DNA of 64,000 nucleotides. Source: a virus. The translations under genes and the position numbers were made by a program. Location of the stretch: positions 13,742 through 77,741 of the IMG/VR virus record IMGVR_UViG_3300042541_003876. One strand, given 5' to 3'. Shown in pieces: positions 8,963 through 28,600 of the stretch. The notes under the pieces were generated by a model, which did no database searches, was not told the DNA's origin, and worked only from the letters and a program-made list of their open reading frames with translations. The stretch's first letter is position 1; every line of letters begins with the position of its first letter.

Positions 8963-9389
8963 GCACGATTTGAATATCTCGCATTCACCTCGATTTCTAC
9001 CGAAAATAGATAATTTCTTCTATTACAAAAAACTTAAATATTCTAAAGAAGATAAAGAATTGATTTTTCAAAAAGAAGTCATTGAGAATGTAGATTTTCA
9101 AAGACACATTTCAGAAACAGCATTAAAGCTGAATATTCCTGAATATATTGTGCACACTGTTGTAACTCATTATTTTTTTACTAACCTTTTAAAACTTAAA
9201 TATCTAAAGCAAAGAATAAGAATCGTTATTTATCAATTTTTTTATATCGAGCAAATTAACCCTCTCGAAAATGAATATTCAAATTACTATAAACATAAAC
9301 TTAAAAATTTAAAAAATGTCAAATACAAACGTCAACTACGTCGCGCCAATGGGAGCAATGACAACACCAATGATTGCTCCGGAGAGTAG
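8952..9389 (+). CDS. hypothetical protein, possibly a degenerate HU/IHF-like fold
   Basis: ISETALKLNIPEYIVHTVV...RIRIVIYQF resembles the HU helix1-helix2-strand pattern. Confidence 0.55.
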   Translation: MKIEHDLNISHSPRFLPKIDNFFYYKKLKYSKEDKELIFQKEVIENVDFQRHISETALKLNIPEYIVHTVVTHYFFTNLLKLKYLKQRIRIVIYQFFYIEQINPLENEYSNYYKHKLKNLKNVKYKRQLRRANGSNDNTNDCSGE

Positions 9390-10392
9390 CTCAGGATTTA
9401 CAAAAAGAGACGATATTCAATTACTTCCAAATGGTTTGCATCCAGGAGTAATTTATGCAGTCTGCGGAATAGGAACTCATATGGAGTCTTTCAATGGTCA
9501 ACCACCAAGAGAAATGAATAAAATCCATATTGGTATTGAGTTTCCTCAGATAAAACAAATGTTTTATATGGAAGATACTGTACCACGCTCTACCGTTGGT
9601 TCATTGGAAGGTGCTTTTGCAATGACAGCTAAATCCAAACTTAAAGCACTTGTAGAAGCTGTTAGAGGTGTAGCGTTTAATACAGAACAAGAAGCAAGCA
9701 ATTATGATATAAGTCAGTTACTTGGTTGTAAAGTACTTTGTAATATGACTACCATTGCCAGACAAAACGGAAAAGGAAATTATAATAAGATTCTGAATTT
9801 TGCTCCATTAGGTACTTATCCATTACCTCCGAATTTCAATCCTGAAAATGAATATAATTTATTTGTAGTAGATGCTGCCGGAGAAAATTTCAAAACAACC
9901 AATTATGCAAATCTTCCAAATTGGTTAAAAAAGACAATTATGGAAAGTGTCGAAGCAAAAAAATATGCTTCAAAAGGTGGTGCATTTGCTAAAAAACCAG
10001 ATGCACAACAAAATGGTAAATCTCAACAACCAGTTCAACAACAATTGCAACATCAAGCGGGACAACCGGTTCCTCAACAACAGCAAGTTCCCCAACAACA
10101 AATTCCACCGGTAACTCAGAAAACATTTGTTCTTACAAATCCTGATTATACAATGGAACAATGGAGACATGCCGGATGGAATGAAGAAGCTTTGGTTGCT
10201 GCGGGTCATGCAAGATGGGATATGCCACTTGCGCCAGCAAGCGCACCACAACCACAAGCCCCTCCAGCCTTACCTCCACAACAGACTTCACAACCTCCGG
10301 TTCAACAGATGCCACAACAAGCACAACCACAAGGACCACCACAAATACCAGATTCTCAATTTGTTGATGAAGATGATGATTTACCCTATTAA
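9316..10392 (+). CDS. single-stranded DNA-binding protein (NGO0469/DUF669-like OB fold)
   Basis: N-domain with GLHPGVIYAVCGIGTH...KIHIGIEF, a long Q/P-rich linker and the acidic tail FVDEDDDLPY. Confidence 0.8.
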   Translation: MSNTNVNYVAPMGAMTTPMIAPESSSGFTKRDDIQLLPNGLHPGVIYAVCGIGTHMESFNGQPPREMNKIHIGIEFPQIKQMFYMEDTVPRSTVGSLEGAFAMTAKSKLKALVEAVRGVAFNTEQEASNYDISQLLGCKVLCNMTTIARQNGKGNYNKILNFAPLGTYPLPPNFNPENEYNLFVVDAAGENFKTTNYANLPNWLKKTIMESVEAKKYASKGGAFAKKPDAQQNGKSQQPVQQQLQHQAGQPVPQQQQVPQQQIPPVTQKTFVLTNPDYTMEQWRHAGWNEEALVAAGHARWDMPLAPASAPQPQAPPALPPQQTSQPPVQQMPQQAQPQGPPQIPDSQFVDEDDDLPY

Positions 10393-10437
10393 ATTAGAGT
10401 TTGGTAGAAAGAAATATATCTTACCACCACCAAGTAG

Positions 10438-10830
10438 ATGAAATCATTCACAATGAAAGTAGAAGGAGATAAAATCAAATTCTTAGACAAAGAAGATAAA
10501 GCCGCTTTTCAGCGGCTTCTTTTTCAATTTGAAAAGAAAGGACATAAAACCTACATATTGACTGTTGATGTTTCAACAGATTCAATTAGCGAAAAACAAG
10601 AAAAATTGTTTGAAGTTTTAGTTAACAAGGTAGCGGATGCTTCCGGTCAAGATAAAAGTGATATTGAAGAAACATTAATTAAGAATTATGGTAACGGGAA
10701 AAACATTAAAGATTTTTCCAAAGAAGAATTTCAGAATTTCATAGAACTTACTTCTGCTTTTTCAATAGACTTTTTCGGGTTCTCAATTAATTTTGACAGT
10801 AAAGGGCACGTTCAAATAAATAAAATCTAA
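10438..10830 (+). CDS. NinB-like recombination protein
   Basis: Pattern SEKQEKLF...VADASG...IEETL...FSKEEFQNFIE. Confidence 0.55.
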   Translation: MKSFTMKVEGDKIKFLDKEDKAAFQRLLFQFEKKGHKTYILTVDVSTDSISEKQEKLFEVLVNKVADASGQDKSDIEETLIKNYGNGKNIKDFSKEEFQNFIELTSAFSIDFFGFSINFDSKGHVQINKI

Positions 10831-11046
10831 ATGTATGTTTACACCGTAATAATCACAATCTGTAAAGTAGGTGCAATTTGGGCGCGTACTATTGTTTTTA
10901 GAAAAACATTCCAATCGATATCAACCGTAGTTTTTATGGTCATGATAATTCACATTAACCAAATAAAATCAAAATCCACATTAATTTATGAAGAAAAACG
11001 AAGAAAGAATAACGAAGTTTTCTCCAGATCAAATTCTGGCTCTTGA
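10831..11046 (+). CDS. small hydrophobic hypothetical protein
   Basis: Starts immediately after the previous stop and has two hydrophobic stretches. Confidence 0.4.
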   Translation: MYVYTVIITICKVGAIWARTIVFRKTFQSISTVVFMVMIIHINQIKSKSTLIYEEKRRKNNEVFSRSNSGS

Positions 11047-12460
11047 GAGAATTGAGGAATTCAGAAAACAACCCATAGTCAAGAATGACGTTAATTCAAG
11101 AGTAATGGTTATTATCGGCGCCGCTGGCGTCGGTAAAACCACTCTTATTAAATATGGTTTGGAGGACTTAATTGCAAAAGATACAGAAAAAGAGTATGAT
11201 GATGAACAAGTAGATGGTGGTTTATTTTCTTCTACACCAGAAGTTATAGGAGTATGTTTAGCACATCAAGCAAAAAAGAATCTTAGAAAATCACTTCCAC
11301 ATACAAAAACTTTTGCTTCATTTTTCGGCATGAAAGAAACTCATGGCGATGAAGGACAAAAAAAATTTGAAGTTGATGAATATGCGCTTAGGTTTGCATT
11401 ATGTAAAGCAGATTTATCATTTGTTGTACACGACGAAGTCTCTATGTATGATATTGATATGATCAATATTATTTTGAAAGAAACTAATCCAAGAACTAAA
11501 ATCATTTTAATGGGTGATGCATGTCAATTACCCCCAATTAATACAGTTGGTGATGATGATAGTCCTGCTTTCGAAATGTTTACTAATGTAGTCGAATTAA
11601 CTAAACGTCATCGTCAAGAAGAAGAAAATCCACTTCTTGAATTATCAGATATTTTAAGAGAAGAAATTCGTGGAAAACAAAATGTGAAACGAGTTTTAGA
11701 AGCGATGAAAAATAATAACATTGTTAATGGAAAAGGTTTTAGAAATGTTTTTTATAGAGATTTTCTGAAAGATTATAAGTCGATTACTTCCAATTATAAA
11801 GAAGCAAAATTAATTGCTTACCGTCGTGCAACAGTTCAAGATTATAATATCAAAATTCGTAATTATCTTTATCCTACCGCTGATCAAATTTATATTCCAG
11901 GAGAAATAATTTACATGAATGATACTTTTAGGCAAGAAAAAAGTGAGCCGATAAATCCTGATGACCATTTGGATGAAATCATTAAAAAGAAACAGGCTCC
12001 TGCAGAATATTACTGTTACAATTCCGATGAATATGTCATCAATACAGTTGAAACAGGTTTTGTTGAAGGAGTAAAGATTTATAAAATCTATTTTGATAAG
12101 TCGGATCGTCCGGATATCGCCGTAGAAAAACCTTATTTTCCAATGCTTCATCCATCAGGAGTAACTAAGTACAATGAAACTTTTTATTATCGTCGTGGAA
12201 AAGCTTTAAATGAGTTTGACAGAAAAAAGAAAAAAGGTTATTGGAAATGGTTTTATATTTTCAAGAATCAGTTTGGTGATTGTTCTTATGCTTATGCATT
12301 AACAGGTCACAAAGCTCAAGGAAGCGGATATAAATACGTTTATGTTGATGTAAGCGATATACTTACCGTTGGTCCAATTTCGGACAAAAGAAAGCTCCAA
12401 GCAATCTATACAGGAATGACAAGAGCAACAGATATCGTATTATTTTTAAAATCAAAATAA
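10988..12460 (+). CDS. SF1B helicase, Dda/RecD-like
   Basis: Motifs GAAGVGKTT, DEVSM, GDACQLPP, YALTGHKAQGS and YTGMTRA. Confidence 0.93.
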   Translation: MKKNEERITKFSPDQILALERIEEFRKQPIVKNDVNSRVMVIIGAAGVGKTTLIKYGLEDLIAKDTEKEYDDEQVDGGLFSSTPEVIGVCLAHQAKKNLRKSLPHTKTFASFFGMKETHGDEGQKKFEVDEYALRFALCKADLSFVVHDEVSMYDIDMINIILKETNPRTKIILMGDACQLPPINTVGDDDSPAFEMFTNVVELTKRHRQEEENPLLELSDILREEIRGKQNVKRVLEAMKNNNIVNGKGFRNVFYRDFLKDYKSITSNYKEAKLIAYRRATVQDYNIKIRNYLYPTADQIYIPGEIIYMNDTFRQEKSEPINPDDHLDEIIKKKQAPAEYYCYNSDEYVINTVETGFVEGVKIYKIYFDKSDRPDIAVEKPYFPMLHPSGVTKYNETFYYRRGKALNEFDRKKKKGYWKWFYIFKNQFGDCSYAYALTGHKAQGSGYKYVYVDVSDILTVGPISDKRKLQAIYTGMTRATDIVLFLKSK

Positions 12461-12747
12461 TGAATAAAAAAAGTCAAGAAGAAATTTTTCAGGAAACCTG
12501 GGATAATTCAGAATTTAATGTTTTTAAGTATAAAAAAAAAGGTGGTAAAATAACCACAAAAAACGAAAGTTTTTTTCTTACCCCACTTCTTAAGAAAAAC
12601 AAATTGTATACTTGGGAAAAGATTAATCGCGAAGCAACTTTGATTGTTGATGGGAAATCAGAACTTTCCTCAAAAGCGAGAGGTGTTATTGATCATGTTC
12701 ACACTCATGTTCTTATTATGTATCAAAAACAATTCAATGGAGAATAG
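12460..12747 (+). CDS. hypothetical protein
   Basis: 95-aa ORF with a TAATG overlap with the helicase. Confidence 0.7.
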   Translation: MNKKSQEEIFQETWDNSEFNVFKYKKKGGKITTKNESFFLTPLLKKNKLYTWEKINREATLIVDGKSELSSKARGVIDHVHTHVLIMYQKQFNGE

Positions 12748-13621
12748 TGAGTTTATTCAATTTGAAATAAAAGCTTCGTCTCATACGAATGCTATTTTAG
12801 ATACTGGAAAGATTGCCTTATTCGATGCAGATTTTTTCAAATATCACGCTACATATAAAAGATTCAAAGAAATTGAATCAGATAAGCAAGCAGGAAGATT
12901 TCCGATATTTGAAAAAGAATTGCCAATCCTGAGAATAGTTAAAAGTATGCTTGCAACATATTTGCTGAAAATTAAGGATCCTATTATTTTTTGTTTTTCT
13001 GGAAGTTCCAAAAATACTTTTCGTGCGCATTGTGCTGTTGAAAAAGAATACAAAGGAAACCGTAACAAAACTGAGGATAAGTATGATTACGATGGAAAGA
13101 TGAATGATATTTTTACTTTAATGAAATTCATTAAGGAAAATTATATGTCATTGCTTTTCGAAGATTTAGAAGCAGATGATATTGTTGCGGTACTGCAGGA
13201 TGAAAATACCTATATTATTTCTCAGGATAAAGATTTAAAACAAGTTCCTGGATTTCATTATAATTTTGGAAACAATACCATTGAGGAAGTCACAAAAGAT
13301 CAGTCAATGTACAATCTGATGTTCCAGATGATTAAAGGAGATACCACGGATAATATCGCAGGTATTCCGGGCGCCGGAGAAAAAAAAGCAATTACTGTAC
13401 TTTCAGAAGTAAGACCACCTAAATATATTAGTAGGGTTTTATTTGAATACCAGTCTAAATTTGGATTAATGGAAGGAACAGACCGATTTGTTGAATCGTG
13501 GAATTTGATAAAAATGAGAATGAATAGAGGTGTTCATTTTCGTTCCAAATACCATCGAATGTTTGACCTCAAAGAATTACTCATTAATCAATTAAAACAA
13601 GAAAAAAAGATAAAGAGTTGA
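12737..13621 (+). CDS. 5'-3' exonuclease / flap endonuclease (T7 gp6/T5 D15-like)
   Basis: Motifs FDAD, YKGNR, EADD, SQDKDLKQVPG and GDTTDNIAGIPGAGEKKA (H3TH). Confidence 0.93.
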   Translation: MENSEFIQFEIKASSHTNAILDTGKIALFDADFFKYHATYKRFKEIESDKQAGRFPIFEKELPILRIVKSMLATYLLKIKDPIIFCFSGSSKNTFRAHCAVEKEYKGNRNKTEDKYDYDGKMNDIFTLMKFIKENYMSLLFEDLEADDIVAVLQDENTYIISQDKDLKQVPGFHYNFGNNTIEEVTKDQSMYNLMFQMIKGDTTDNIAGIPGAGEKKAITVLSEVRPPKYISRVLFEYQSKFGLMEGTDRFVESWNLIKMRMNRGVHFRSKYHRMFDLKELLINQLKQEKKIKS

Positions 13622-13657
13622 AGTTATTTCAACTCTTTATCTTTTTTATTAAATTTG
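13603..13657 (+). promoter_or_regulatory. perfect 20-bp-stem hairpin/terminator containing the TTGAAGTTATTTCA box, followed by a TAAATTTG -7 element
   Basis: AAAAAAGATAAAGAGTTGAA-gttat-TTCAACTCTTTATCTTTTTT (13603-13647). Box at 13618-13631, 18-nt gap, TAAATTTG at 13650-13657. Confidence 0.65.
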
Positions 13658-13682
13658 TCTAATAATTAAAAATCAAAAAATT

Positions 13683-14912
13683 ATGTCAGAAACTAAAAAC
13701 GCCTTGGAAGTAGAAGTAATCATTCCAAAGGAAGTTCTTGAAAATAACGAAGGACTAAAAAAAATGTACGATGAAAAGAAAAAATCTTTATCATATGTCA
13801 TGGGAGCAGAAACTACAAAACAACTTAAAGATTACATTTCAGATGTAGTAAAAAGTTCTACTTCTGAAGAACTTGCTTTGTTCAATCCAGTATTTAGCGC
13901 TATCAGTTTTATTCAAAATTTCCGTTCCCTTAAATGGAATCCGGAAAAGAAAAATGAAAAAGAATATACTCAAGCAAAAACAATACTGGGTAAATTCAAT
14001 ACTGCAATTAAAACAACTGCGTCAGAAATTAAGAAACCGAGAAATGAATACAATAAAAAAGTTATTCAGCTTGAGAAACTTCTTAATGAAGAAAGCGCAA
14101 ATGTTCGGGCAGCTTTGGATAAAAACTTTGATGAACTGCTTAAAGAAAAGTTAGCAAAAGTAGAAGCTGCTAATGCTAAAAAAGATGCGGTGAAAGACGG
14201 TCAGATTGCGGAACTTTCTGCTGAAAACACAAAGAATACTGAATTACTTACTAATCAGAAAATAACTACAAGAAAATTAGAAATTGATAATATTATTGCA
14301 AAAGTTGTTATCGATGTTACGGGTAAATTAGATTCTTTAAATGAAGAGGGATTAGATAAATTACGAGTAGAAGTTTTGGATAAAAAATTAGGAGACACTG
14401 ATACTCCGGATGTAACTTTTTCAGTCGAAGAAAAAACAAAGTACAGGAAAGATTTTGCAACTCAGGTTTTAGCTGCTATCAAATTAATTGATGATAAAAA
14501 GCAAAACCTTTCTCTTACATCAACTAATGCAAACCTGGAGACTGAAAATAAAGTTTTGAAAGCAAATACACCATCGGCTTTTGTAGACGATGAAGATGAT
14601 ATGCCTTTCGAAATTACTACAGCAACACCAATTACTCCACAGCCAATTGCGCAACCGGTTCTGGTTACAGATGCTGATAAACTTTCATTAGTTGCTCAAC
14701 TGATTGATGAAACTAATACTGCACTTATCAATGCTGTTTCTACTATCAATAATTTAGAATTTGAAGATCCATCACTTCAATCTATTCAAAGAAAATTGGT
14801 AGATGTATCTATGAAAAACATTCTTGACTGGACGGATAAAACAAATATTTGGACGGCCAAAAAGAAAGAAGCATATATTAATCACATTAATTCTTTACAA
14901 AATGAACTTTAA
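13683..14912 (+). CDS. long coiled-coil protein, DUF1351-like
   Basis: LGKFNTAIKTTASEIKKPRNEYNKKV motif, heptad-rich sequence and an internal FVDDEDDMPF. Confidence 0.65.
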   Translation: MSETKNALEVEVIIPKEVLENNEGLKKMYDEKKKSLSYVMGAETTKQLKDYISDVVKSSTSEELALFNPVFSAISFIQNFRSLKWNPEKKNEKEYTQAKTILGKFNTAIKTTASEIKKPRNEYNKKVIQLEKLLNEESANVRAALDKNFDELLKEKLAKVEAANAKKDAVKDGQIAELSAENTKNTELLTNQKITTRKLEIDNIIAKVVIDVTGKLDSLNEEGLDKLRVEVLDKKLGDTDTPDVTFSVEEKTKYRKDFATQVLAAIKLIDDKKQNLSLTSTNANLETENKVLKANTPSAFVDDEDDMPFEITTATPITPQPIAQPVLVTDADKLSLVAQLIDETNTALINAVSTINNLEFEDPSLQSIQRKLVDVSMKNILDWTDKTNIWTAKKKEAYINHINSLQNEL

Positions 14913-15555
14913 GCTACCAAAACTTCAAGTATTTTTAAATGGAGACAAAAAAACCGATGAAACTGATGCTACAAAAAACATTCATGTTATCGGTGGTCAT
15001 GCTATTGTAAGCAATGACATTATTGCAATTGTTAATCTTCGTGAATATGTCAAACGAGAATTAAAAATCAATGACGATAATGATTTGCAAGAGTTGTCCC
15101 AAATTATTGATTGGATGAATTATAAGTCATTCACAAAAGAATTTTGGAGCGAACTTACTTCCGAAAAAATTGTTTCATTATTAGATGATGGTTTGGAAAT
15201 TACTCACCAGAGTTATACTAAACATCTGAATTATCTTGATAATGATGCAGATCCTGAAAGAGCTTATCAACTTACAAAAGATAATATCAATCGCAATGAA
15301 ATTGAAATGTCAAGATTTGCATTATCAGGAGAGCATCTGAGTTTAATATCAAAAGGCTTTGCTTCTGAAATGAAAGGAGATAATCTCATTTTTAAATTGT
15401 CAGGAACAGGAAACGCGATCATGTTTTCTCTTCAGAGAAGAGATTATATATTTGGTGTTATTCCTGAACATTTCGATTCATCAATGGACCTTGCCGCTTT
15501 CATTACTTCGGAAGGTTTGTTTGAGTTGCTTCGAGCAAAAGAATTTAATCAATAA
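14902..15555 (+). CDS. putative sliding-clamp-fold (DnaN-like, truncated) protein
   Basis: NIHVIGGHAIVSND at the N-terminus and FALSGEHL...LIFKLSG...AIMF...IFGVIP at the C-terminus resemble beta-clamp domain patterns. Weak similarity. Confidence 0.45.
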   Translation: MNFKLPKLQVFLNGDKKTDETDATKNIHVIGGHAIVSNDIIAIVNLREYVKRELKINDDNDLQELSQIIDWMNYKSFTKEFWSELTSEKIVSLLDDGLEITHQSYTKHLNYLDNDADPERAYQLTKDNINRNEIEMSRFALSGEHLSLISKGFASEMKGDNLIFKLSGTGNAIMFSLQRRDYIFGVIPEHFDSSMDLAAFITSEGLFELLRAKEFNQ

Positions 15556-15563
15556 CTTTTAAA

Positions 15564-15590
15564 GGCGGTCTTAGTGCCGCCATTTTTTTT
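15564..15590 (+). terminator. intrinsic terminator
   Basis: GGCGG-tcttagtg-CCGCC followed by ATTTTTTTT. Confidence 0.75.
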
Positions 15591-15593
15591 ATT

Positions 15594-16253
15594 ATGGCAA
15601 CTGAAATAAACATGACCGAAGTCTATTTTGAATGGTGGTTAAAAGAACTTCAAGCAAAAGGGTTGGTATTATATTATGAAAGAGAACCTCAAAGTTTTGT
15701 GTTGACGAATCCGGTTCAAATCTTTTACAATCAATTCAAAGCAACTAAAGAGATTATAAAATCTTTTGAATTATATTCACCATTAACATACACTCCTGAT
15801 TATAAAGTAGTGATTTCCGAAAAACTAAAAAATAGATTATTCGGTGTTGTTTCAAAGGAACAGCAGATTTTAGAAGATGAGGATTTTAACGAAATAGGTT
15901 CTGCTTATCAAAATACTATTTTCTATACTGAGTCGCTTCAAAAATCTAAAGATTATCCAGGTTGCTATGAAATATGGTTTGATGTAAAAGCACCGAATGC
16001 TGCATCAAATGTTAATCCTCGTTTAACATCTACCAGAGATTTTAAATACGTCTCTCGTTTGATGTTTGACACTCATGGAATAGTCGTTAATAAAGTCGTT
16101 CCTATTGGAATGAAAACGTGTTTATTTGGTAAAACATTTATGCCAAAAAGATATAGGTACACGGATATTTCCGGACAGCTTAGAAAATTAAAAGATTATG
16201 AATCTGGCTTTCGTAATCTTGAACAGTATTTAGAAATCAAAAAAGTAATTTAA
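15594..16253 (+). CDS. PD-(D/E)XK nuclease (DUF1064-like; possible Holliday junction resolvase)
   Basis: E(VYF)...YEREPQSF...YTPDY...WFDVK. Confidence 0.7.
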   Translation: MATEINMTEVYFEWWLKELQAKGLVLYYEREPQSFVLTNPVQIFYNQFKATKEIIKSFELYSPLTYTPDYKVVISEKLKNRLFGVVSKEQQILEDEDFNEIGSAYQNTIFYTESLQKSKDYPGCYEIWFDVKAPNAASNVNPRLTSTRDFKYVSRLMFDTHGIVVNKVVPIGMKTCLFGKTFMPKRYRYTDISGQLRKLKDYESGFRNLEQYLEIKKVI

Positions 16254-16271: not shown

Positions 16272-16907
16272 ATGCAATTATCAAAAGTATTATTATTAGG
16301 ACTTTCACACTTTTCAATTGATGTGAAACAAACAGAAACCAAAGTTACTGTGGTCTTTTCTCCAAAAACAACTGTTACCGATCCTGCGGTAAAAGATTTA
16401 AAACCATTAATTATTAACTTTGATTCTCCGGAAGAAATGGATGAGAAATTTGTGGAAATGATTACTGGGCCAGTTCAAAAAACAGTTCAGTTGTTTACGG
16501 GTATCGAAGATTACGAAAAACAATTAGCAGCAACCGCCAAGAAAACCAAAGAAGCTGATGCTGAGAAAAAAGCAAACAGTACCGCGGCGGCGAGTAAAAA
16601 AGCAGCAGATGCAAAGAAAAAAGAAGAGGTTGCAAAAGCAACTCCTACTTTAGAATTTACTGAAGAAACTCCAGTGGAAAAACCTGCAGAAGTAGAAACT
16701 AAAAAAACAGCACCGGAATTAATCAAGGAAATATCTGATAAAAATAAAGCTGAAGTTCCGGTTGTTGAGGAAGCAAAAGTCGAAGAGGAAATCATTCAGA
16801 CTCATTCTTACGACAATGAAGATGTTGTTGATGCAACAGACCAAGAGCAGGAAGAGGAAGAAAATCAAGAAGATTTATTTTCATCAGTTCCGGATTTATT
16901 TTCTTAA
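16272..16907 (+). CDS. PRTRC system protein E
   Basis: KPLII..SPEEMDEKFVEMITGPVQKTVQLFTGIEDYEKQL motif, then a low-complexity charged tail. Position upstream of the Ubl fits the cassette. Confidence 0.85.
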   Translation: MQLSKVLLLGLSHFSIDVKQTETKVTVVFSPKTTVTDPAVKDLKPLIINFDSPEEMDEKFVEMITGPVQKTVQLFTGIEDYEKQLAATAKKTKEADAEKKANSTAAASKKAADAKKKEEVAKATPTLEFTEETPVEKPAEVETKKTAPELIKEISDKNKAEVPVVEEAKVEEEIIQTHSYDNEDVVDATDQEQEEEENQEDLFSSVPDLFS

Positions 16908-16925
16908 TCATTAAATATTTATAAA

Positions 16926-17147
16926 ATGGCTACAGTACAAGCAATTACCAGAAAGTTCTCATTAAAAGTAAATGGAAACACTATAGAGTTAGATGATCCA
17001 AATCCGGAATTATCTACAGACGAAGTAAAAGATATTTTGTCTAATCATTACCCTCAATTATTAAATTCAACTATTAGTGACAAAGGTCTTTCAGATAACG
17101 GAGACCACACTTTTGAATTTATTACTGTTGCAGGAACAAAAGGATAA
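16926..17147 (+). CDS. prokaryotic ubiquitin-like protein (PRTRC protein C)
   Basis: RKF...LDDPNPELSTDEVKDILSNHYPQLLNS...FEFITVAGTKG, 73 aa, ending in Gly. Confidence 0.93.
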   Translation: MATVQAITRKFSLKVNGNTIELDDPNPELSTDEVKDILSNHYPQLLNSTISDKGLSDNGDHTFEFITVAGTKG

Positions 17148-17150
17148 AAT

Positions 17151-17354
17151 ATGAATGCAAAACAGTTTTTAAAATTCTGTAAAGAAAGAGGGGTCGGTAA
17201 CGATCCCTCTTTTTCTATTGGAAAAGTAAAAAAAGAGAATTCCAATATTATAAACTTAATGTCTTCAATATGCAAAACTCAAAAAAATCAATCGGAACAC
17301 AACACATTCCAGGAGAAATTATACCAAGCAAAAACAAAAACTTTTTTGAGTTAA
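17151..17354 (+). CDS. small hypothetical protein within the PRTRC cassette
   Basis: 67-aa ORF starting 3 nt after the Ubl stop and overlapping the next gene. Confidence 0.6.
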   Translation: MNAKQFLKFCKERGVGNDPSFSIGKVKKENSNIINLMSSICKTQKNQSEHNTFQEKLYQAKTKTFLS

Positions 17355-18343
17355 CATCTTTGTTACCTCGAATTATTGTTCAAAATCAAAATGAAAAGAG
17401 TTTTGAATGGTATGTTTCTTATTGCGAATTACTTATTAAGATTTTAGAAAACTATAATCTTTTAGACCAAGTTGATTTTGAATTTGTAGAATATGATTCT
17501 ATAATAACATTAACAATAGAACTTGAACGAGTAGTACAACTTATTGAAGGCTGGACTGATGATACATCTCGTCATGATTATTCAGATGAACTTGCTGTTT
17601 CGATATACACTGAAGATTTCAAAAACAAAAAATTAAAAAACGTAACATTAGGATTTCCGGATTTAAACCCAGATTACATTTATGTTTATTATATAACACA
17701 ATTCCGAAAATTTAAAAGCCGAAAAATGAGAATCGGTTTTTGTCATTTTCTTCATCATTTTAAATACCTCACTCCATTACCATTATCTGATGATGCACTT
17801 TCCTATTACACTACTTTAGAAATGGAGTTAGATAATTATGAAGACTTTGATCCGGAAGAAATGCAAGATGACACTTTTGTTTCTGGTCTTTTTGATATGA
17901 AATCTTTACTTGAAACCAGAGAACCTATTTTGAAAAAAATATTTTCTGAGTTCAATGAATATTCTATTTCTTATTATTCAGAGTTCCTAAGTTACAATCC
18001 TCGGGATCCAGAATTAAAAAAAGTCAAAGAATCAATAATTTTCTGTGTAGATAACTTAAAAGGTTTTCATGAAAAATACGGATGTTCTTTTTATGGTGCC
18101 GATGAAGGTGGGATTCACTTTGAAGAAATGTTTAGGATTTTTCCTGAAAAAAATGGAATAGATGACTATGAAGTTGACAGTATTCAAATTAATGCTCAAA
18201 ATGGAGTCTTACCATTAGAGTCTTTTTTAACATTTAACAAAACAACTATAAATTTCGAAAAAAGAGAAAAATCAAAAAAGATTTTTAATGAATTATTACA
18301 TCACTTAATTGTAATTTCTGAATATTTTAATAAAGATGAATAA
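17270..18343 (+). CDS. acidic 357-aa protein at the position of PRTRC protein F
   Basis: Synteny between the Ubl and the E2. No catalytic motif recognised. Confidence 0.6.
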   Translation: MQNSKKSIGTQHIPGEIIPSKNKNFFELTSLLPRIIVQNQNEKSFEWYVSYCELLIKILENYNLLDQVDFEFVEYDSIITLTIELERVVQLIEGWTDDTSRHDYSDELAVSIYTEDFKNKKLKNVTLGFPDLNPDYIYVYYITQFRKFKSRKMRIGFCHFLHHFKYLTPLPLSDDALSYYTTLEMELDNYEDFDPEEMQDDTFVSGLFDMKSLLETREPILKKIFSEFNEYSISYYSEFLSYNPRDPELKKVKESIIFCVDNLKGFHEKYGCSFYGADEGGIHFEEMFRIFPEKNGIDDYEVDSIQINAQNGVLPLESFLTFNKTTINFEKREKSKKIFNELLHHLIVISEYFNKDE

Positions 18344-18998
18344 GAAAAAAAAAGAAGAAAAAACAGACCTTATTGGGGTAATATCTGTTTACGAGAATTT
18401 AGTTTTATACCATTCAAATAAAAATGGAGAGCTGTCTGCCGGTAAACTTTTAGATAAAGAATCAATGAAAAAGATTTTTAAATTTTTACAGACAGGTTCA
18501 GATTTGGTTTCATACAAATTTGAAGGAATGGTTCCGGAAAATGTTTTAAAATACAATTCCGATAACGGTGATCTTTTGTTTTACACAAAACCTCAACGTC
18601 GCACAATGATATTCAAAAAAGACCTTCCTGTGCAAACTGCAGAATATAATTTGCCTTATATCTTATGGCAATATACAAATGGAAGTCTTAAAGTTTTTTC
18701 CTTAAAATCAAAACCTAAAAACGAAAAAGATATTTTATACAATGCCCCTTTCTTTAACACTAATTCAAGCGGCCTTGTATGTATGGGAAATGTTAATTAT
18801 AAAAACAATACTGGCAAATTCAATGGCTTTATGGACCAGCTTCAAGAATTGTTTTTTAATTCAATTTTTAATGCAAGTCATAACAACAAAATGGCTACAG
18901 AAAACATCATTGATGTTTATGAAAAAGCAAAATCAAAAGATTTTAACTGGAATGAATATTTGGTTAAATCATCATATACTTTAAAAAACGTATTATGA
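18336..18998 (+). CDS. prokaryotic E2 family D (PRTRC protein B)
   Basis: GMVPENVL...LPYILW...LYNAPFFNTNSSGLVCMG (candidate catalytic Cys)...FFNSIFNASH. Confidence 0.9.
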   Translation: MNKKKKEEKTDLIGVISVYENLVLYHSNKNGELSAGKLLDKESMKKIFKFLQTGSDLVSYKFEGMVPENVLKYNSDNGDLLFYTKPQRRTMIFKKDLPVQTAEYNLPYILWQYTNGSLKVFSLKSKPKNEKDILYNAPFFNTNSSGLVCMGNVNYKNNTGKFNGFMDQLQELFFNSIFNASHNNKMATENIIDVYEKAKSKDFNWNEYLVKSSYTLKNVL

Positions 18999-19723
18999 GT
19001 TACAAAATAAATGGATATTTACAAAATCCAAACCATGCAATTACTGTTGATGTAGTTGGTTGTGGCGGTACCGGTTCTTTTGTTCTTTCAAGATTAGCAA
19101 GATTAAACTATGCTCTTAAAGCAATGAATCATCCCGGACTCCATGTGAAAGCTTACGATGATGATAAAGTAGAATCTCATAATGTTGGTAGGCAAAATTT
19201 CTACGAAACGGATGTTAACGATTACAAATCAACAAATATTATTGAGAAATGTAATATGGCTTACGGAACAACTTGGGAAGCTTTTAGAAAAAAACACGAT
19301 GCAAAAATAAATTCAAATATTTTGTTTTGTTGCGTTGATAATGTTCAATTCAGAAAAGAAATCTATGATCGTGGTAAAATAAAAATTACTAATCATACAA
19401 TGTATAATCAAGGATTGTATTTGTTTGATTGTGGAAATGGAAAAGATTTTGGCCAAGTCATAGTTTCGGAACTATTTGATTCTAATTTAAAAGACACCAT
19501 TGATTTCTTTCCGGAAATGATGTCTCAAGACAATGAAAAAACTCAGGGAACTAAAGGTTGCAGTTATGCAGAAAAACTTCAAGAACAGAGTTTATTTATT
19601 AATGATTTTATTTCTGCAGAAGCTTGCAATTTATTTTTTGTGATGCTTACGTCAAAAACAATTGATTACCAAGGCGTGATTATCAATCAGAACAATTTTA
19701 AAAAACAACCGTTAAAAATTTAA
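18995..19723 (+). CDS. E1-like activating enzyme (PRTRC ThiF family)
   Basis: Motifs VVGCGGTGS, DDDKVESHNVGRQNF, CCVDN, DCGN and GCS-x2-E-x-L-x2-QSLFIN. Confidence 0.93.
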   Translation: MSYKINGYLQNPNHAITVDVVGCGGTGSFVLSRLARLNYALKAMNHPGLHVKAYDDDKVESHNVGRQNFYETDVNDYKSTNIIEKCNMAYGTTWEAFRKKHDAKINSNILFCCVDNVQFRKEIYDRGKIKITNHTMYNQGLYLFDCGNGKDFGQVIVSELFDSNLKDTIDFFPEMMSQDNEKTQGTKGCSYAEKLQEQSLFINDFISAEACNLFFVMLTSKTIDYQGVIINQNNFKKQPLKI

Positions 19724-19948: not shown

Positions 19949-20119
19949 ATGTTTATCGTAATATTTAATATCGGAAGCCGTGACGTCACATTGATGACAA
20001 ATAACCATGGATTTATTGAAGAGTTTTATGACTATGAAACCGCTGTACAACATGCTAAAGAATGGTTAGACGAAGACCAGTTCAGAAAATTTGAAGTATT
20101 TGAAAAATCAAAAAATTAA
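19949..20119 (+). CDS. hypothetical protein
   Basis: ATG at 19949, directly after the previous stop. Confidence 0.65.
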   Translation: MFIVIFNIGSRDVTLMTNNHGFIEEFYDYETAVQHAKEWLDEDQFRKFEVFEKSKN

Positions 20120-20123
20120 AAAT

Positions 20124-20579
20124 ATGTTACTAATCGAAGACAAAAGAGAGCGATACGTCGTTGATAAAAAGAATTTCAAGGGAAATGTTCAATCAATCCT
20201 TTACGGTCAAAAATGCCCATACAGCGGAAAGACTGAACGGGAATATTTATCACAAGGATTTGTGATTTATGATTCGTGGGATTTGTTTTACGATGAAATG
20301 GTAAATCCTTATTTACTTTCCTTACAAGGTGAGTGGGTTGAAATTTCAGAAGAGCGATACGATGATATGCTAAATTGCTTACCACCGATGCGCTGGAGAA
20401 ACATTGCTTCCGGAATAAATTGTTTTGCAATGTGTGAAGGATTAACCTATGATTTGCATTCATTTTATTTACAAGTTACCGACGGAAAATCTGTAAAGTA
20501 TTACACCGCTGTTCGCAGGATTCGTGAAAAAGATTCAGTGATTGCAGCAGATATTATTAATCAATTGAAACTAGGGTAA
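20124..20579 (+). CDS. DUF1419-like protein
   Basis: EISEERYDDMLNCLPPMRW...FAMCEGLT. Confidence 0.7.
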   Translation: MLLIEDKRERYVVDKKNFKGNVQSILYGQKCPYSGKTEREYLSQGFVIYDSWDLFYDEMVNPYLLSLQGEWVEISEERYDDMLNCLPPMRWRNIASGINCFAMCEGLTYDLHSFYLQVTDGKSVKYYTAVRRIREKDSVIAADIINQLKLG

Positions 20580-22557: not shown

Positions 22558-22597
22558 AAAAAACCACTTTTATTGTGAAATAAAAGTGGTTTTTTTT
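22558..22597. terminator. bidirectional intrinsic terminator after the RNAP gene
   Basis: AAACCACTTTTAT-tgtgaa-ATAAAAGTGGTTT with flanking A and T runs. Confidence 0.85.
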
Positions 22598-22635: not shown

Positions 22636-25600
22636 TTAAAACATATTATTCAAAGCTGCAACCGGTGCCGGAACAAGTTTTCCTGCAAGCCTGTCTGAAT
22701 TCAATATCAAATGACTATCCGAAATTAATTTATCAATAGCAGGATTGTCTGTAAATGTATTTACTGCTGCCAAAGAAGAAACTAATCCCATTGTCACCAA
22801 TGCTGAATTTAATTTTTTTCTTTCATTAGAGTCAAGGTTTTTGTAATAATTTACAAAAGTTTTAGGAGTCCATTCACCACGATATCCTTTCTGAATTGTT
22901 TCAAGCAAAGCAGTATAAGTTCCTATGGTAACATTTCCATAACGGTCAATGTCTTTTTTGCCAAATAAAGTATTGAACATTGTTGGAATGTACCTATTAA
23001 ACTGCATCATTGCTCTTCCCCATGAATACATTTGAATCATTCTTTGATCAGTTGGTTGATAACCTCTGCCATGAACTGCTTTAATTTGATCTTCATAAAG
23101 AGTCAATTTATTTGAATTAATTGGATTTCCATTTTTTAAAGTTTCCCATTCTTCATCTTGAAGTTTACCTAAAAAATGTACACCTTGAATCCATTTCTCA
23201 CTCCATGTCATTGGAAACAAAGCAATATTCATTAGATTTTTTTCTACTGAATTTTTGTTATCCATATTGACATCATCGTAGATATTAATATCCATGAATC
23301 CAGCAGTTTTCAATACCGCCATGGATTCCCGAATTCCCTTAAAAGGATCGGTGATATCAAACTTCCCACTTTTTCCCATCCAAAATCTTTTTTCTCCTTT
23401 TAGCCAATCGGTACCACCAGCTTCTACAACATTGTTGAATTTACCAATCAGCACATTTCCCACTGCATAAACTCCGGCACCCATTGCTAAACCCTTCCAT
23501 CCAAGCCAATAAACTAAACTTCCTTTGGTGATATAATCAACGACTTTATCCGATGTAATTCCCATTGCTTCCAATGCAGGAATATTAGGAATTGAACTTT
23601 GTTTTTGACCGCCAATAAAATATTGTTTCCAAACTTTGTTTACATAATCTGATACATTTTTATCTCCATTAGCATCTGCTTGTGCAAGAATTCCGTCAAT
23701 AACTGGAACCATTTTTTTAAAGCCTTGAAAATTTTCATTTCCATGCTGGAATAATGTAGCATGAGCATAATCAACAAAAGATTTGTTTAAATCCAGCGAA
23801 GGAAAGTCTGCGGACTTCACACTCCTTCCACTTGCAAACCTATCCATAAACACATCACCTAAAGCCCCGCCGATTTCGATAGGGCTTTGGAATATTGGTG
23901 AACCGTCTTGGTTGATTCCTTTTTTATTTAAAACAATTGCTTTTCGTTTTAACTTTATATAATCTAAAGCGTGCCGGTTACTCCGGTTTGGGCCTGCCGA
24001 TAATCCATTGTAGATGTCAGTGATTTCTTTGAATGAAACTCCTTTCATTAACATGGCGTTGACAGGATTTATGATATCCATTTTAACATCGTTGATTTTT
24101 TCATCAACTGTTTTGGCATTTACCATCAATCCAAGCAATCCCCTTCTTGATAATATTTCCCAGTTTGCAGGAGCAACGTGCGGTATATAATCTTTCCTTC
24201 CTGATTTCCCTTCTGGCAAAGCAAATCCTTTTAAAGCATCAGTCGTTGCACGTGAAATATTGTAGAAATTATATTGAGCATCGGAAATACTTCCGGCTTT
24301 ATGTTCTCTCTCTACAACCTCTCTTGGTTTATACCTCATTTCATTGTAAGAATTCCCTTCATTATCTTTTTCAATAATAATCATCAAAGGCCCATAAAGT
24401 TTTTGGTAAATTTCCTGTTTGTTTCCAAACAAATTTGTCTCAACATTTTTGATGTAATTTTTAATATTACCTGAAATTCCTTTACCGCCGTAAGGCTCAT
24501 AACCTAACTGTTCTTTGTATAAAGCATTGGTAGCATCATTAATTTTACCGACAATTTTACTTCTTTCATTCAAAAAGTTTTTATACTCTCCTTCCATTCG
24601 GCGAACTAAGTTTTGTACAGCTGGGTGATTACTGGGAACATTTCCGGTCATGAAATATTTCTGCAAAATAGAAATATCATTTCCGTCATATTCGCGACCC
24701 GTTAACATTGTTTGGTCAGTGGCTGCTCTCGTAGCTAATTCTTTTATGATTGGTGCCACAATTTCAGCATAAGCAAATTTATTCCGGTTTCCAAAACCAA
24801 CTCCATTTCCATATTTATTTCCGATATCATCACGAGAATCATAAAGCTTCAGTAATTCATCATTACTCATTGTTTTTACTGAATCAGTATTAATGATCGA
24901 TTTTAATTTATCGGCTTCCATTTTATTACTGACATATGCCTGATGCATGGAAATTTTACGGTTTTCAGAAAACTCTTTAGAATACTCCATAACCTGATCA
25001 TATTCGTCTTTGTTCATCAGGCGAGCAAAATTCCAGTAATCTCCCCGCATTTCACGTCCATCTGACAGTTTACTCATATCCAATGGTCTTGCAGTAGATT
25101 CATTAAAAATACGGTCATTTATGCCTGTTTCCAGCGTTGCAGGATTTTTAATGGTGATGTAATCCAAATTAGGATTTGCATTGTATTTACCAGCGTAACT
25201 TTTTGAAATCAACCTATGAATTGTCGGCAATAATGTATTGCTGTAATATTCTTTAGTGCTTGAACTTTCTTTATCCAGTTTCAGCTGAGCTCTCGTGTCT
25301 TTATCAATCCCTTGGAATTTTTGAATTAAGTCTTTTCCAGATTTGTCTTTTGTTCGGAAAATAAACGGGTCACCTTTCATAAATGAAGCCATTAAACTTT
25401 CATTGTTTACAGACAATTCGGGATTCAAATTTCTTTCACCATTTCTGCCGTAGGAAAATACATTGTCATAGCTTCTGAATAAATCAGGGTTATTAAAAAT
25501 GGCTTTGTTTTTTAATTGCTGCAACTGAACATCTGTAGCTTTATTTTCTTTTGACATTACAGATACTGTCTGTTTGATCCCACTCTCAAATAATGGAAAC

Positions 25601-28600
25601 AACGAGTTTGGTCCTGACCATCCATTTTTCATCAAATCATAAAGAATCAAATCATTCTTAAGTTCCGACGGAAGCGCCGCAAATTCCTGAATCATTTTGC
25701 TTCTCAAAGTATCATCAGCAGAATTATTGAAAAAATCACTGTTCAAAGAAATATATTTATTGCTTGATTTTAGAGATAAGTTTAAGCCTTGAGTAAGCAA
25801 TAAATTGCTTTCAAAATTGGTAACACTGGCATTAGGGTTTTTGCTGTCATAAAAAGCAAAATCTTTTTTGTACTCAGTAATCTGTTGAGCTAAATTGTTG
25901 AATATGTTTTTTGGTCCAGGAACCTGGCGTTTTGTTGCTGGATCAATTTCATATTTTGTTAAAGCTTCATAAACTTCGCGATCCACATTATTCAATCCTA
26001 AAGCCTGAGCAGTATGGAAAATATCCAAAGCATTATACAAAGCTTTGTGATTATCAGCACTCATTTCTTTTGTAGACAAACTGGTAATTTCATTGTAAAC
26101 TGCTTCGGTATTTCCGGAATAAACAGGATCCAGCTTTTTCTGTGCATCTTGATTTTTAATCAAAACATTTTTGTAATTCTGAACGATAGGACTGTTTTTA
26201 AAATCATCATTGGTAATCAAATGACGGTTATTATCCGGATTCATTCTGTTGTCAAAGTTTTTGATAACGTCATTAATCTCAAATGGATTTACGGTCATTG
26301 TATTGTGAATTGACAGTACAGCACTAATGTCAGAAAGTTCAGTTTCCATTTGATTGATGGTATTAATCAAATTGTACAATTCAATTTCTTGTGACTCAAT
26401 TTTTTTCGTATCGATGTTTATTTCTGAAAATTTACTTCTTTTTAAACCAAATTCAGTACGAAGTTTTTCCATCACATTATACTTCTCATCTTTATTGAAA
26501 GCACTGGTATTATTATTTTTTAACGCTGAATATCTTTTGATCATCGGTGAATTTAGAATAACTGCAACCTGGTCCAAATCAAATCCAAGATTAGTAAGTA
26601 CCATTGCAATAGGAATGGTATTAGTGTCAATTCCCAATTTATTAGCAAAAGCATTTTTGGAATTATCCAGAATAATGTTGAAGTTTTTCGCTGAATTAAT
26701 GGATATTGATTTGTCTGCAGCATCCATAAATTGGTCAGCATAATTACCATCGATATTAATCGGAACTTTAATTCCAATACCGTAATTTCTAAACATTCCT
26801 AAAGTCGTATGAAGATTGGCTGCCAATCCCACATTTGCTTTTGCAATCAAAGTATCTTCGAAAGCTTTTTGTCTACCTCTGGAAGAAAATGGTAACGTAA
26901 AATCAGTTTCGGTTTTTCCCCAAACTTTTTCAGCTGCTTCCACTGCATTTTGCGCATCTTCTTTAAAGTCGATATCCAATCGGATTTCGTCCTGCATCTG
27001 AGGGTTCAGATAATGTTTTTCAATTTTACCCAAAATTCTATTCCAGTCACCGGTCCTGCTTCCTTTGTGCTGAACAAATATCGGATCACCATCATTATCA
27101 GAACCGATGGTTTTTTTAAACTCATTTGGCAATTGGATATTATTTCCTTTTTCTCCGGTAGTCCCTACTACTTCAAAAACTCCTGTAGACTGAATACCAT
27201 GTGAAGGAATACGCGTTGCCAAAACGGTGTCTCCGGCGGCGTAAAATCCTATATGTTGACCACTTGCATTGAATACTTTTCCAACTTCAGTTCCGCGGTT
27301 ATTTGCTTCTGATTTAGCTAATTTCATTTGCTCTTCCAACGATGACTGTTCCGTATAAGTTCCAACAAAATATTTTCTGACTTTCAGTTTATTTCTTTTG
27401 TTGGAATCAGAACCATCTACCATTCCTTCCGGAATAACAACCTCACCTTTTGAAACGGTACCATTGGAATTTGTTTGGTAGAAATTTAAACCAACGTTTC
27501 CGGATTCAGCATTTAAGTCTGAACTTGTTGCATATTCTTTTTCAAATAATGATGGTTTTTCCCGGAGGATTCCCCCGGGGGTTTTTATTTTCAAACCATT
27601 CTGTTTGATGTAATTGGCGATTGTATTTTTTACAATTGATTTTACTGCAGGAGTTTGAAGTGATACATTTTCATTGAATAACAAAAAGTTTTGAGTCTGG
27701 TCAATTAAATTCGGATCAATCAAATCTTTGATAAAAGTTCTGATTTCTGAATCGGTACCACTTATTAATGTTTCCATTCCGACAGTCAGCTGTTGTTCAG
27801 AAAGATTCCTAATGTCATTTAAAATATCATTGACAAAATCTTCATTTTCATTTAAAGCTATATTGCTTGTAAGCGATTTGATGAACTGAACAGAAGTGTT
27901 GGCAAAATCTTTATCAATATCCATTACCTGTTGAATACCAAAGTTAGAACCGTCTGCACCGATAAAGTCATCACCTTCGTAATACATTTTATCCAGCTGA
28001 TTTAATGCTTCCTGAAACTGTTCCGGATTGCTTTCAAAAGCATCGGTAATATTTTGGAAATTCATTAAAGCCGGATTTTCATCGGTAGTTCTATGATTGT
28101 AATAATCAGGAAGATTGTTTGATTTATTTGCCGAAATAGGCACAATCATAGGAATATAGTTTCCGGTACCATCCAACAAATTCATTGAAGGTTTACCATA
28201 TTTAGATTCGTATTTTGCTTTTCTTGCTTTCAACAATTCATAAGCGCCTTTTAAAGCAGGGTTTTTAATGACAACCTCATCATTAAGAACGGTAGCAAAT
28301 CCTTTGTTGTAAATATTCTGGCCAAGCATTCCCGGAGCATTTCTCTCAATACCGGTATGAATCAGTTTGAATGAATTACCTAAAAGCATCATGTTACCAC
28401 CAGCTGATCTAAATCTTTCTGCGTCATCTTCCAAAATATAAAATCCGGAATCGGTTGCTTCAAAATCATCCAATTCATTGATTTTAATATCTTCCAAATA
28501 AATCGGTTCCACGCGGGTATTTGGAAAAGTAAACATCGGCGATGATGCAGATTTTGCTCTTTTCACCAACTCATTGTCTCCATTTGCTTTTTTCATCTGG

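Follow-up and report, generated by a model that had tools for sequence, protein, structure and literature searches.

The closest described relatives of the locus reported here are the ParB-Related, ThiF-Related Cassettes (PRTRC; TIGR03734-03742), which were predicted in 2006 and correspond to operon type 6d of Iyer, Burroughs & Aravind (PMC1779556). PRTRC has been reported on Elizabethkingia integrative and conjugative elements (ICEs; 10.1101/2024.12.10.627669), discussed for the Burkholderia prophage AB2 (PMC13366799) and found in a Phocaeicola prophage, in which protein B was reported as the target of a diversity-generating retroelement (10.64898/2026.10.01.756045, preprint). Papers that mention PRTRC call its function unstudied (PMC13366799; 10.1101/2024.12.10.627669), and our search of the literature found no experiment on it, though it was predicted so long ago, is listed by annotation pipelines and is common on plasmids, ICEs and phages. 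We have studied a 64,000-nucleotide stretch of viral DNA (the window; all positions without a prefix refer to it), which covers bases 13742-77741 of the 77,741-bp IMG/VR virus record IMGVR_UViG_3300042541_003876, estimated by CheckV to be 98% complete. Six coupled open reading frames (ORFs) on the plus strand at 16272-19723 form a PRTRC-like cassette, in the order E, ubiquitin-like modifier (Ubl), ORF x, a 357-aa protein (hereafter F2), E2 and E1, with intergenic spacings of 18, 3, -85, -8 and -4 nt. An original prediction, made from the letters of the window, had described six tightly coupled genes here, and all six ORFs are indeed present on that strand at those positions. The reading that finds the best support in the sequence is that they may encode a Ubl-conjugation machine docked on a sliding clamp.

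The cassette can be compared with three better characterized bacterial systems, Bil (BilABCD), Cap2/Cap3 of the cyclic oligonucleotide-based antiphage signalling system (CBASS) and Bub (‘6E’), which likewise combine E1, E2 and a Ubl acting via its C-terminal glycine, but which are host anti-phage or stress systems. Their E1 architectures are tandem (IAD-AAD-CYS) or fused, and their partner genes encode CD-NTase or DUF6527 proteins: Cap2 and Type II Bub are E2-E1 fusions, Type I Bub is a JAB-E1 fusion, and Bub adds a DUF6527 serine protease, while Type II Bub typically also lacks a JAB peptidase (PMC11601596). In contrast, the window has a single 242-aa ThiF-type E1 and a separate Prok-E2_D E2, and its sole match to these systems is a weak one to the 6A-MBL cap2_3 model (E = 8.7e-4).

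The catalytic motifs of the cassette are intact. The E1 (18995..19723, plus strand, 242 aa) is of the ThiF type with a single adenylation domain, and scores 189.7 bits against the PRTRC ThiF model TIGR03736, over the cut-off of 144.75. It carries the loop GCGGTGS (GxGGxG), N63-x2-R66-Q67, K78, C113, D115 and C189, each conserved in at least 98 of 99 sequences. The E2-like carrier (Prok-E2_D or PRTRC_B-like; 18336..18998, plus strand, 220 aa) matches PF14460 at 1e-21 (77.9 bits, cut-off 25) and scores 77 bits against TIGR03737 (protein B), under the cut-off of 131; it thus appears homologous to protein B yet outside the curated equivalog. Its motif is P138-F-F-N141-x6-V-C149-M-G151, in which C149 is the sole cysteine of the protein, and P138, N141, C149, G151 and F178 are invariant in 97 of 97 E2 sequences. 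The Ubl (16926..17147, plus strand, 73 aa) exceeds the cut-off of TIGR03738 (55.7 against 45.95 bits), matches PF14454 (Prok_Ub) at 1.4e-16 and ends G70-T-K72-G73-COOH, with G73 invariant in 84 of 84 sequences. As encoded, the Ubl would be made in its mature form, with no need for a peptidase. Hence the residues that define an E1-E2-Ubl cascade are all in place: GxGGxG, R66, Q67 and D115 of E1, C149 of E2 and the free G73 of the Ubl. The original prediction of a PRTRC-type E1/E2/Ubl cassette is borne out by the TIGRFAM and Pfam hidden Markov models (HMMs), with E1 and Ubl over their NCBIfam cut-offs. It had also correctly read the intact nucleotide loop, the N-x2-RQ motif and the distal cysteine of E1 as well as the free terminal glycine of the Ubl (AGTKG); its E2 cysteine stands, with the spacing of that motif off by one (PFFN-x6-VCMG, not PFFN-x5-VCMG).

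We then placed the cassette among its relatives. A search with an E1 profile found 85 IMG/VR stretches with an E1 relative, of which 80 loci were kept and sorted by our own ORF and HMM analysis; a scan of genome contigs with narrow patterns gave 5 loci only, a single-protein scan of IMG/VR found nothing, and blastn of the cassette against GenBank phages gave no match. Two architectures can be distinguished. Type 1 (43-44 loci) includes Ralstonia phage Dina (NC_055026) and Burkholderia phage BgVeeders33 and has the order E, Ubl (~130 aa), F (~350 aa), B, A (JAB) and ThiF, whereas type 2 (the window and ~35 IMG/VR loci, together with others from metagenomes and Flavobacteriia) has no A and has the order E, Ubl (mostly 67-74 aa), a 345-420-aa protein, B and ThiF. 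The view taken in the original prediction, that PRTRC is described from plasmids and integrative elements, is therefore outdated, since PRTRC is annotated in Dina, present in BgVeeders33 and found in the 85 IMG/VR stretches. A whole-record search restricts PRTRC_A to type-1 records. The Ubl of type-1, JAB-bearing loci runs 1 to ~60 residues beyond GTKG, whereas in all 35 of 35 JAB-less loci it ends exactly at G-x-K-G. Loss of JAB thus tracks strictly with a ready-made modifier. The PRTRC_A search, which was validated on Dina and BgVeeders33 and also finds A in 10 IMG/VR records, gave no match to PRTRC_A (TIGR03735) anywhere in the 77,741-bp genome, and nor did JAB (PF14464). The missing eraser is thus a fixed trait of a subtype whose Ubl is encoded in mature form; the original prediction had been right that a dedicated eraser is absent, but this is not peculiar to one phage.

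Compared with canonical PRTRC such as that of Dina and BgVeeders33, the window shares the order E, Ubl, (small ORF), ~350-aa protein, E2 and E1, homologous E, C, B and ThiF, the invariant E2 cysteine, E1 cysteine and Ubl G-x-K-G, and a conserved hydrophobic C-terminal motif on E. It differs in having no A (JAB-N + JAB), ParB or ParM-like D, a Ubl without extension, a middle protein of another family, B and E under the NCBIfam cut-offs, and a carrier phage with no detected integrase or partition genes. Given that A, F and ParB were not found and that B and E fall under the curated cut-offs, the cassette is, as far as its sequence tells, a variant of PRTRC and not a canonical member. Other type-2 loci, for example those of Flavobacterium sp. 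P3160 (NZ_SNWW01000020.1, L106/L003) and Chryseobacterium viscerum (L108), have the identical architecture, an F2-family protein and a ~70-aa Ubl ending in G-x-K-G, although their E1 is only ~33-47% identical to that of the window. Flavobacterium and Chryseobacterium cassettes are also the nearest cellular homologs (E1 ~33-43% identical by tblastn and 44-45% in a protein alignment). Further variants of the cassette were noticed in an Armatimonadota metagenome-assembled genome (L109) and in metagenomes (L095, L097 and L098); among them are one JAB-less locus, which encodes a PRTRC_F-like protein and in which a single ORF seems to fuse B and ThiF, and divergent JAB-bearing loci with a DnaN gene 150-4900 nt downstream.

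The first gene of the cassette (16272..16907, plus strand, 211 aa) encodes a PRTRC_E-like protein that matches PF19556 (1.7e-13; 51.1 bits, over the cut-off of 26), scores 34 bits against TIGR03741, under the cut-off of 37.95, and is found at 2e-32 by our own E HMM, built from 76 loci. Its AlphaFold2 (AF2) model, with a predicted local distance difference test (pLDDT) score of 72.8, consists of a small three-stranded N-domain, a single long Lys/Ala/Glu-rich helix (residues 53-121, ~70 residues) and a disordered acidic tail; a fold search returned generic long-helix matches only (Z ~6). The tail (pLDDT ~50) ends in ...NQEDLFSSVPDLFS and holds two short linear motifs encoded at 16866..16904 (plus strand), Q199-E-D-L-F203 and P207-D-L-F210-S211-COOH. 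The consensus for binding the bacterial beta clamp is Q-L-x-L-F, usually at the C-terminus and in a disordered region (PMC4549789). The two motifs of E resemble it and are candidate clamp-docking peptides. Similar peptides recur among type-2 loci: [SDGT][LIM]F occurs within the last 70 aa of 21 of the 38 type-2 E proteins, against 1.8 in shuffles (at most 6 in 500), a ~12-fold enrichment, with tails such as QTSLF, QNSLF, HPSLF and QPGLF. In type 1, 40 of the 42 E proteins terminate in [LVI][DE][LMIV][FYL]-COOH.

Independently of the motif, the genes next to type-2 cassettes also point to the clamp. We clustered the neighbouring genes at 37 type-2 loci, all of which include E and extend 1.5 kb or more beyond the cassette at both ends. 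The neighbour met most often is a genuine DnaN, matched by PF00712, PF02767 and PF02768 alike, which flanks the cassette in 14 of these 37 loci (13 of them distinct), in 12 cases within 110 nt of E or E1; DnaB-like helicases come next. Many other type-2 loci have a dnaN of their own immediately next to the cassette, whereas the window phage does not. No model of PolA, PolB, Pol III alpha or DnaN matched anywhere in its genome, estimated to be 98% complete, and the phage presumably replicates with the Pol III and the clamp of its host.

The motif in the E tail, dnaN near related cassettes and the lack of a detected polymerase or clamp gene in this phage are the grounds for a clamp-docked machine. 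In such a machine, Gly73 is the last residue of the 73-aa Ubl from translation onwards, and the ThiF-type E1, as its conserved motifs suggest, would adenylate this glycine and may accept it on Cys189; the Ubl would be handed to Cys149 of E2 and then joined to lysines of a target. PRTRC_E could serve as an elongated adaptor whose acidic tail peptides dock the system on the beta sliding clamp, and F2, judged from its evolutionary rate, might pick the substrate as a specificity or E3-like subunit. Since neither a polymerase nor a clamp gene was detected in the phage, the clamp would be that of the host. Candidate substrates are the clamp, clamp-bound host proteins and the Lys-rich E itself, during takeover of the host replisome. 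We regard it as roughly an even question whether the cassette is a working, minimal type-2 PRTRC conjugation system, free of JAB and ParB, that sits in the phage replication module and is docked at the host replisome. A more specific proposal is tentative, and to our judgment rather doubtful: that the pre-matured Ubl covalently tags the host beta clamp or clamp-bound replisome proteins, with the E tail docking E1 and E2 and F2 choosing the substrate, so as to capture the host replisome, in what would be a phage and bacterial counterpart of PCNA ubiquitination. In eukaryotes, the ubiquitination and SUMOylation of PCNA (Rad6-Rad18, Ubc9-Siz1) bring Ubl-conjugation machinery to a sliding clamp. 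This is a functional analogy only, as the adaptors are not homologous, the bacterial beta clamp is not PCNA, and the clamp as a substrate is hypothetical.

Several points weigh against docking at the replisome. About 60% of the well-flanked type-2 loci have no adjacent dnaN, and neither the window phage nor its nearest relatives (L083, L087 and L080) have a dnaN adjacent to the cassette; the clamp link is carried over from more distant type-2 loci. The clamp-like motif of E is short and weak, with E or P instead of L at position 2, and could bind another protein of the cassette instead. A very divergent polymerase could have been missed in this uncultured genome. Furthermore, searches of structures and of the literature found no solved structure or published assay for any PRTRC component, and no paper was found that ties PRTRC or ThiF to the sliding clamp, or crAss-like phages to ThiF.

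The 357-aa protein F2 (17270..18343, plus strand), which occupies the position of PRTRC_F, belongs to no named family. It had been called F-like in the original prediction, which the profiles do not support: TIGR03742 (PRTRC_F) matches neither F2 nor 6 position-equivalent proteins, while the F protein of Dina, as a control, scores 353 bits, and hhalign of F2 against PRTRC_F yields a probability of 2-10%, apart from a weak 44-column hint at the C-terminus. Instead, the proteins that hold the same position in type-2 loci align with F2 over 270-289 columns (hhalign, 96-98% probability, E = 1e-9 to 4.5e-14). This other family is large: after clustering at 50% identity, it counts 1088 representatives at E<=1e-3; a word-indexed search finds a single real homolog (P0081, 41% identity). 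There is no match for F2 in Pfam, NCBIfam or PHROG and nothing usable in ESM Atlas. Its AF2 model is confident (pLDDT 82.7, predicted template modelling score 0.78), yet has no fold match in the PDB (Foldseek, best E = 0.3); a wide fold search (VIA) gives at best Z = 4.8 over residues 39-102 only, and in BFVD the model matches one uncharacterised phage protein (A0A6J5L345, E = 1.2e-7). The predicted complex of E2 with F2 has an ipSAE of 0.00, which says nothing either way.

F2 is the most divergent component throughout, being 21-26% identical to its relatives against 44-57% for E1. Between the window and locus L085, E is 88% identical, Ubl 74%, x 43%, F2 26% and E2 53%, and E1, truncated in L085 by the contig end, is 61% identical over residues 1-195 (tblastn); the corresponding values for L083 are 35% (E), 52% (Ubl), 33% (x), 25% (F2), 44% (E2) and 57% (E1). 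Judged by its evolutionary rate, F2 is the component likeliest to be a specificity, adaptor or E3-like subunit. The start codon of its gene is uncertain, and residues 1-20, which fall within the overlap with ORF x, are disordered. ORF x (17151..17354, plus strand, 67 aa) is small and basic, with 44% identity to its counterpart in L085 (1.5e-15), 34% in L083 and 30% in L087, and its HMM also matches L080 and L003/L106, the Flavobacterium locus, so that x is common to the window and both of these. It is a genuine gene, conserved in this sub-clade, and it has no match in Pfam or NCBIfam and a marginal one in PHROG (the unnamed phrog_37770, E = 0.006). The last 85 nt of x overlap the F2 gene; in 10 of 10 loci the next gene is in the -1 frame, with an overlap of 55-150 nt. 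A -1 frameshift joining the two ORFs was considered and rejected: the window has A_AAA_AAT and T_TTT_TTG, but a slippery heptamer is not conserved in the relatives. The idea of x as a detached N-terminus of F2 was likewise dropped (hhalign probability 0.2%). We noticed that the same bases encode K-x-[FL]-[FL]-[SI] at the C-terminus of x and F-x-L...[IL]-P in the downstream frame.

The divergence of F2 raises a different possibility, namely that the cassette acts in counter-defence or host takeover outside replication, by tagging or inactivating host defence or housekeeping proteins or by acting as a decoy for Bil or CBASS, with F2 picking the targets in an arms race. An F2 that is far more divergent than its neighbours, as in the comparison with L085, would fit this, as would the location of the cassette in an early/replication block and the PRTRC protein B of the Phocaeicola prophage that is reported to be a target of a diversity-generating retroelement (10.64898/2026.10.01.756045). 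However, one fast-evolving subunit would also fit adaptation to different host replisomes. No defence or anti-defence gene is linked to the cassette, its recurrent neighbours are the replication genes encoding DnaN and DnaB, and the E tail, which is conserved, is suggestive of the clamp. We therefore consider counter-defence unlikely. It was one of three roles offered in the original prediction, beside host takeover and replisome control, and has gained no direct support, whereas replisome control is supported circumstantially by the E tail, the dnaN neighbours and the missing polymerase and clamp genes.

It is also conceivable that nothing is conjugated and that E1 and Ubl act as a pair in adenylation or sulfur transfer, in the manner of ThiS/MoaD, such as would serve a cofactor or the modification of a nucleic acid. 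The E1 is of the plain single-domain ThiF type with weak matches to ThiF and MoeB models, and the Ubl ends in glycine as ThiS does. Against this, a protein of the E2 fold with an invariant single cysteine and a P-x-x-N signature is always present, and the genes scanned in and around the cassette include no rhodanese, cysteine desulfurase or thiazole/molybdopterin gene. Furthermore, although a structure search found no close solved relative for any cassette component, the nearest solved relatives of the E1 family profile are the adenylation domains of the eukaryotic ubiquitin and NEDD8 E1s UBA6, UBA1 and NAE1 (at only E ~1e-6), and not ThiF or MoeB. These results make a sulfur carrier very unlikely.

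Annotation papers speak of a ‘ParB/ThiF partitioning cassette’, and a partition or maintenance module would be in line with the company of canonical PRTRC, which on plasmids, ICEs and temperate phages is accompanied by ParB; the label ‘partitioning cassette’ was given without tests (PMC13366799). Searches of the whole 77,741-bp genome gave no match to ParB_N (PF02195) or PRTRC_D/ParM (TIGR03739) and none to a tyrosine or serine recombinase, so the absence of JAB, ParB and ParM, which the original prediction had noted for the adjacent genes, extends to the entire genome by model searches. Where neither lysogeny nor plasmid-maintenance genes can be detected, there is nothing for a phage to partition, and no type-2 locus was retrieved through a ParB link. 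A role in partition thus seems highly improbable. The phage had been called lytic; a virulent lifestyle is plausible, and the evidence for it consists of the absent integrase and ParB matches.

The cassette resides in a tailed, distantly crAss-like freshwater phage, within its replication module. The minus strand encodes a terminase (phrog_6681; 23-26% identical to crAss-like terminases), a portal, structural proteins, an amidase and a 3963-aa protein, and the plus-strand block around the cassette encodes SNF2, DnaB-like and SF1 helicases, an HU-like protein and a 5′-3′ exonuclease, in agreement with the predicted placement of the cassette next to replication genes in a phage, a placement that is also syntenic in relatives. 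In L083, the window genes at 9316-16253 occur in the same order and are followed by the cassette. On the 78.4-kb contig L087, the cassette recurs together with the exonuclease, both the DnaB-like and the SF1 helicase and a homolog of the 3963-aa protein (33% identity), and in L080 (80.5 kb, estimated to be 100% complete) the cassette is again present, as are the genes that flank it in the window. A quick tree of E1 puts the window, L083, L086/L087 and L089 in one clade, with a Shimodaira-Hasegawa-like approximate likelihood ratio test (SH-aLRT) value of 96, and L080 in a sister clade with Flavobacterium sequences. The cassette is therefore a conserved, long-retained part of a lineage of ~78-80-kb phages. 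Among the 38 type-2 viral records, the Bacteroidota conjugative protein TraG was found in none, and a Terminase_6N-type terminase in at least nine.

Contigs at least 99% identical to the window from four other lake-water runs (2020, 2024) span both junctions of the cassette. Together with the synteny in related phages, these independent samples rule out a chimeric assembly or a recent passenger, which contradicts the scenario, raised in the original prediction as a possible refutation, of a chimera derived from an ICE. That the block was freshly captured from an ICE or misassembled and plays no role in the phage is thus barely credible: a capture might be suggested by Flavobacterium and Chryseobacterium cassettes being its closest homologs in cells, but synteny holds in at least three related phages with E1s 44-57% identical, every catalytic residue is kept, the GC content is uniform (0.29-0.32), both junctions are bridged and TraG is absent from all 38 type-2 viral records.

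A gene for a 219-aa protein (15594..16253, plus strand) accompanies the cassette, with homologs upstream of it in L083 and L080 and just past E1 in L087, and probably shares its transcription unit. The protein has no match in Pfam, NCBIfam or PHROG; in ESM Atlas it lies near viral hypothetical clusters and, lower down, DUF1064, a weak lead. A terminator-like GC hairpin with a T run (15564..15581, plus strand), found by a pattern scan as a consensus match only, possibly bounds the transcription unit of the cassette on its upstream side. A second terminator-like hairpin from the pattern scan (22558..22595), called on the minus strand, separates the plus-strand early/replication block from the minus-strand structural block, and it could terminate in both directions because its stem is flanked by A and T runs. 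The sign of the GC skew flips at ~22 kb. A scan for sigma-70 promoters found sites no more numerous than in shuffles. Further observations concern the rest of the genome. A gene for a DUF1419 protein (PF07215, 1.7e-7) follows the cassette after ~370 bp and belongs to the same strand block (20091-20579, plus strand). The exonuclease gene is closely followed by a perfect 20-bp inverted repeat (13603-13647), which is AT-rich and was called terminator-like on both strands. The genome also encodes a 3′-5′ exonuclease (535-1113), a DHH/RecJ-like protein and, upstream of the window, a GroEL-like chaperonin (Cpn60_TCP1, 3.9e-55; L111:4781-6487, minus strand). The ORF for the 3963-aa protein (22636-34527, minus strand) contains SDNDGD, like the DxDGD of two-barrel RNA polymerases, and is a candidate for a crAss-type virion RNA polymerase.

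PRTRC in phages was already on record, and the JAB-less type-2 form is a variant of it. The characterized bacterial E1/E2 systems are host defences, and here it is the invader that carries one. Phages in which no lysogeny genes were detected stably retain this stripped-down form, with neither an eraser nor ParB, in their replication module. Should docking on the clamp prove true, the PRTRC family, so long without an explanation, would gain a site of action, and ubiquitin-like signalling directed at the sliding clamp would exist outside eukaryotes.

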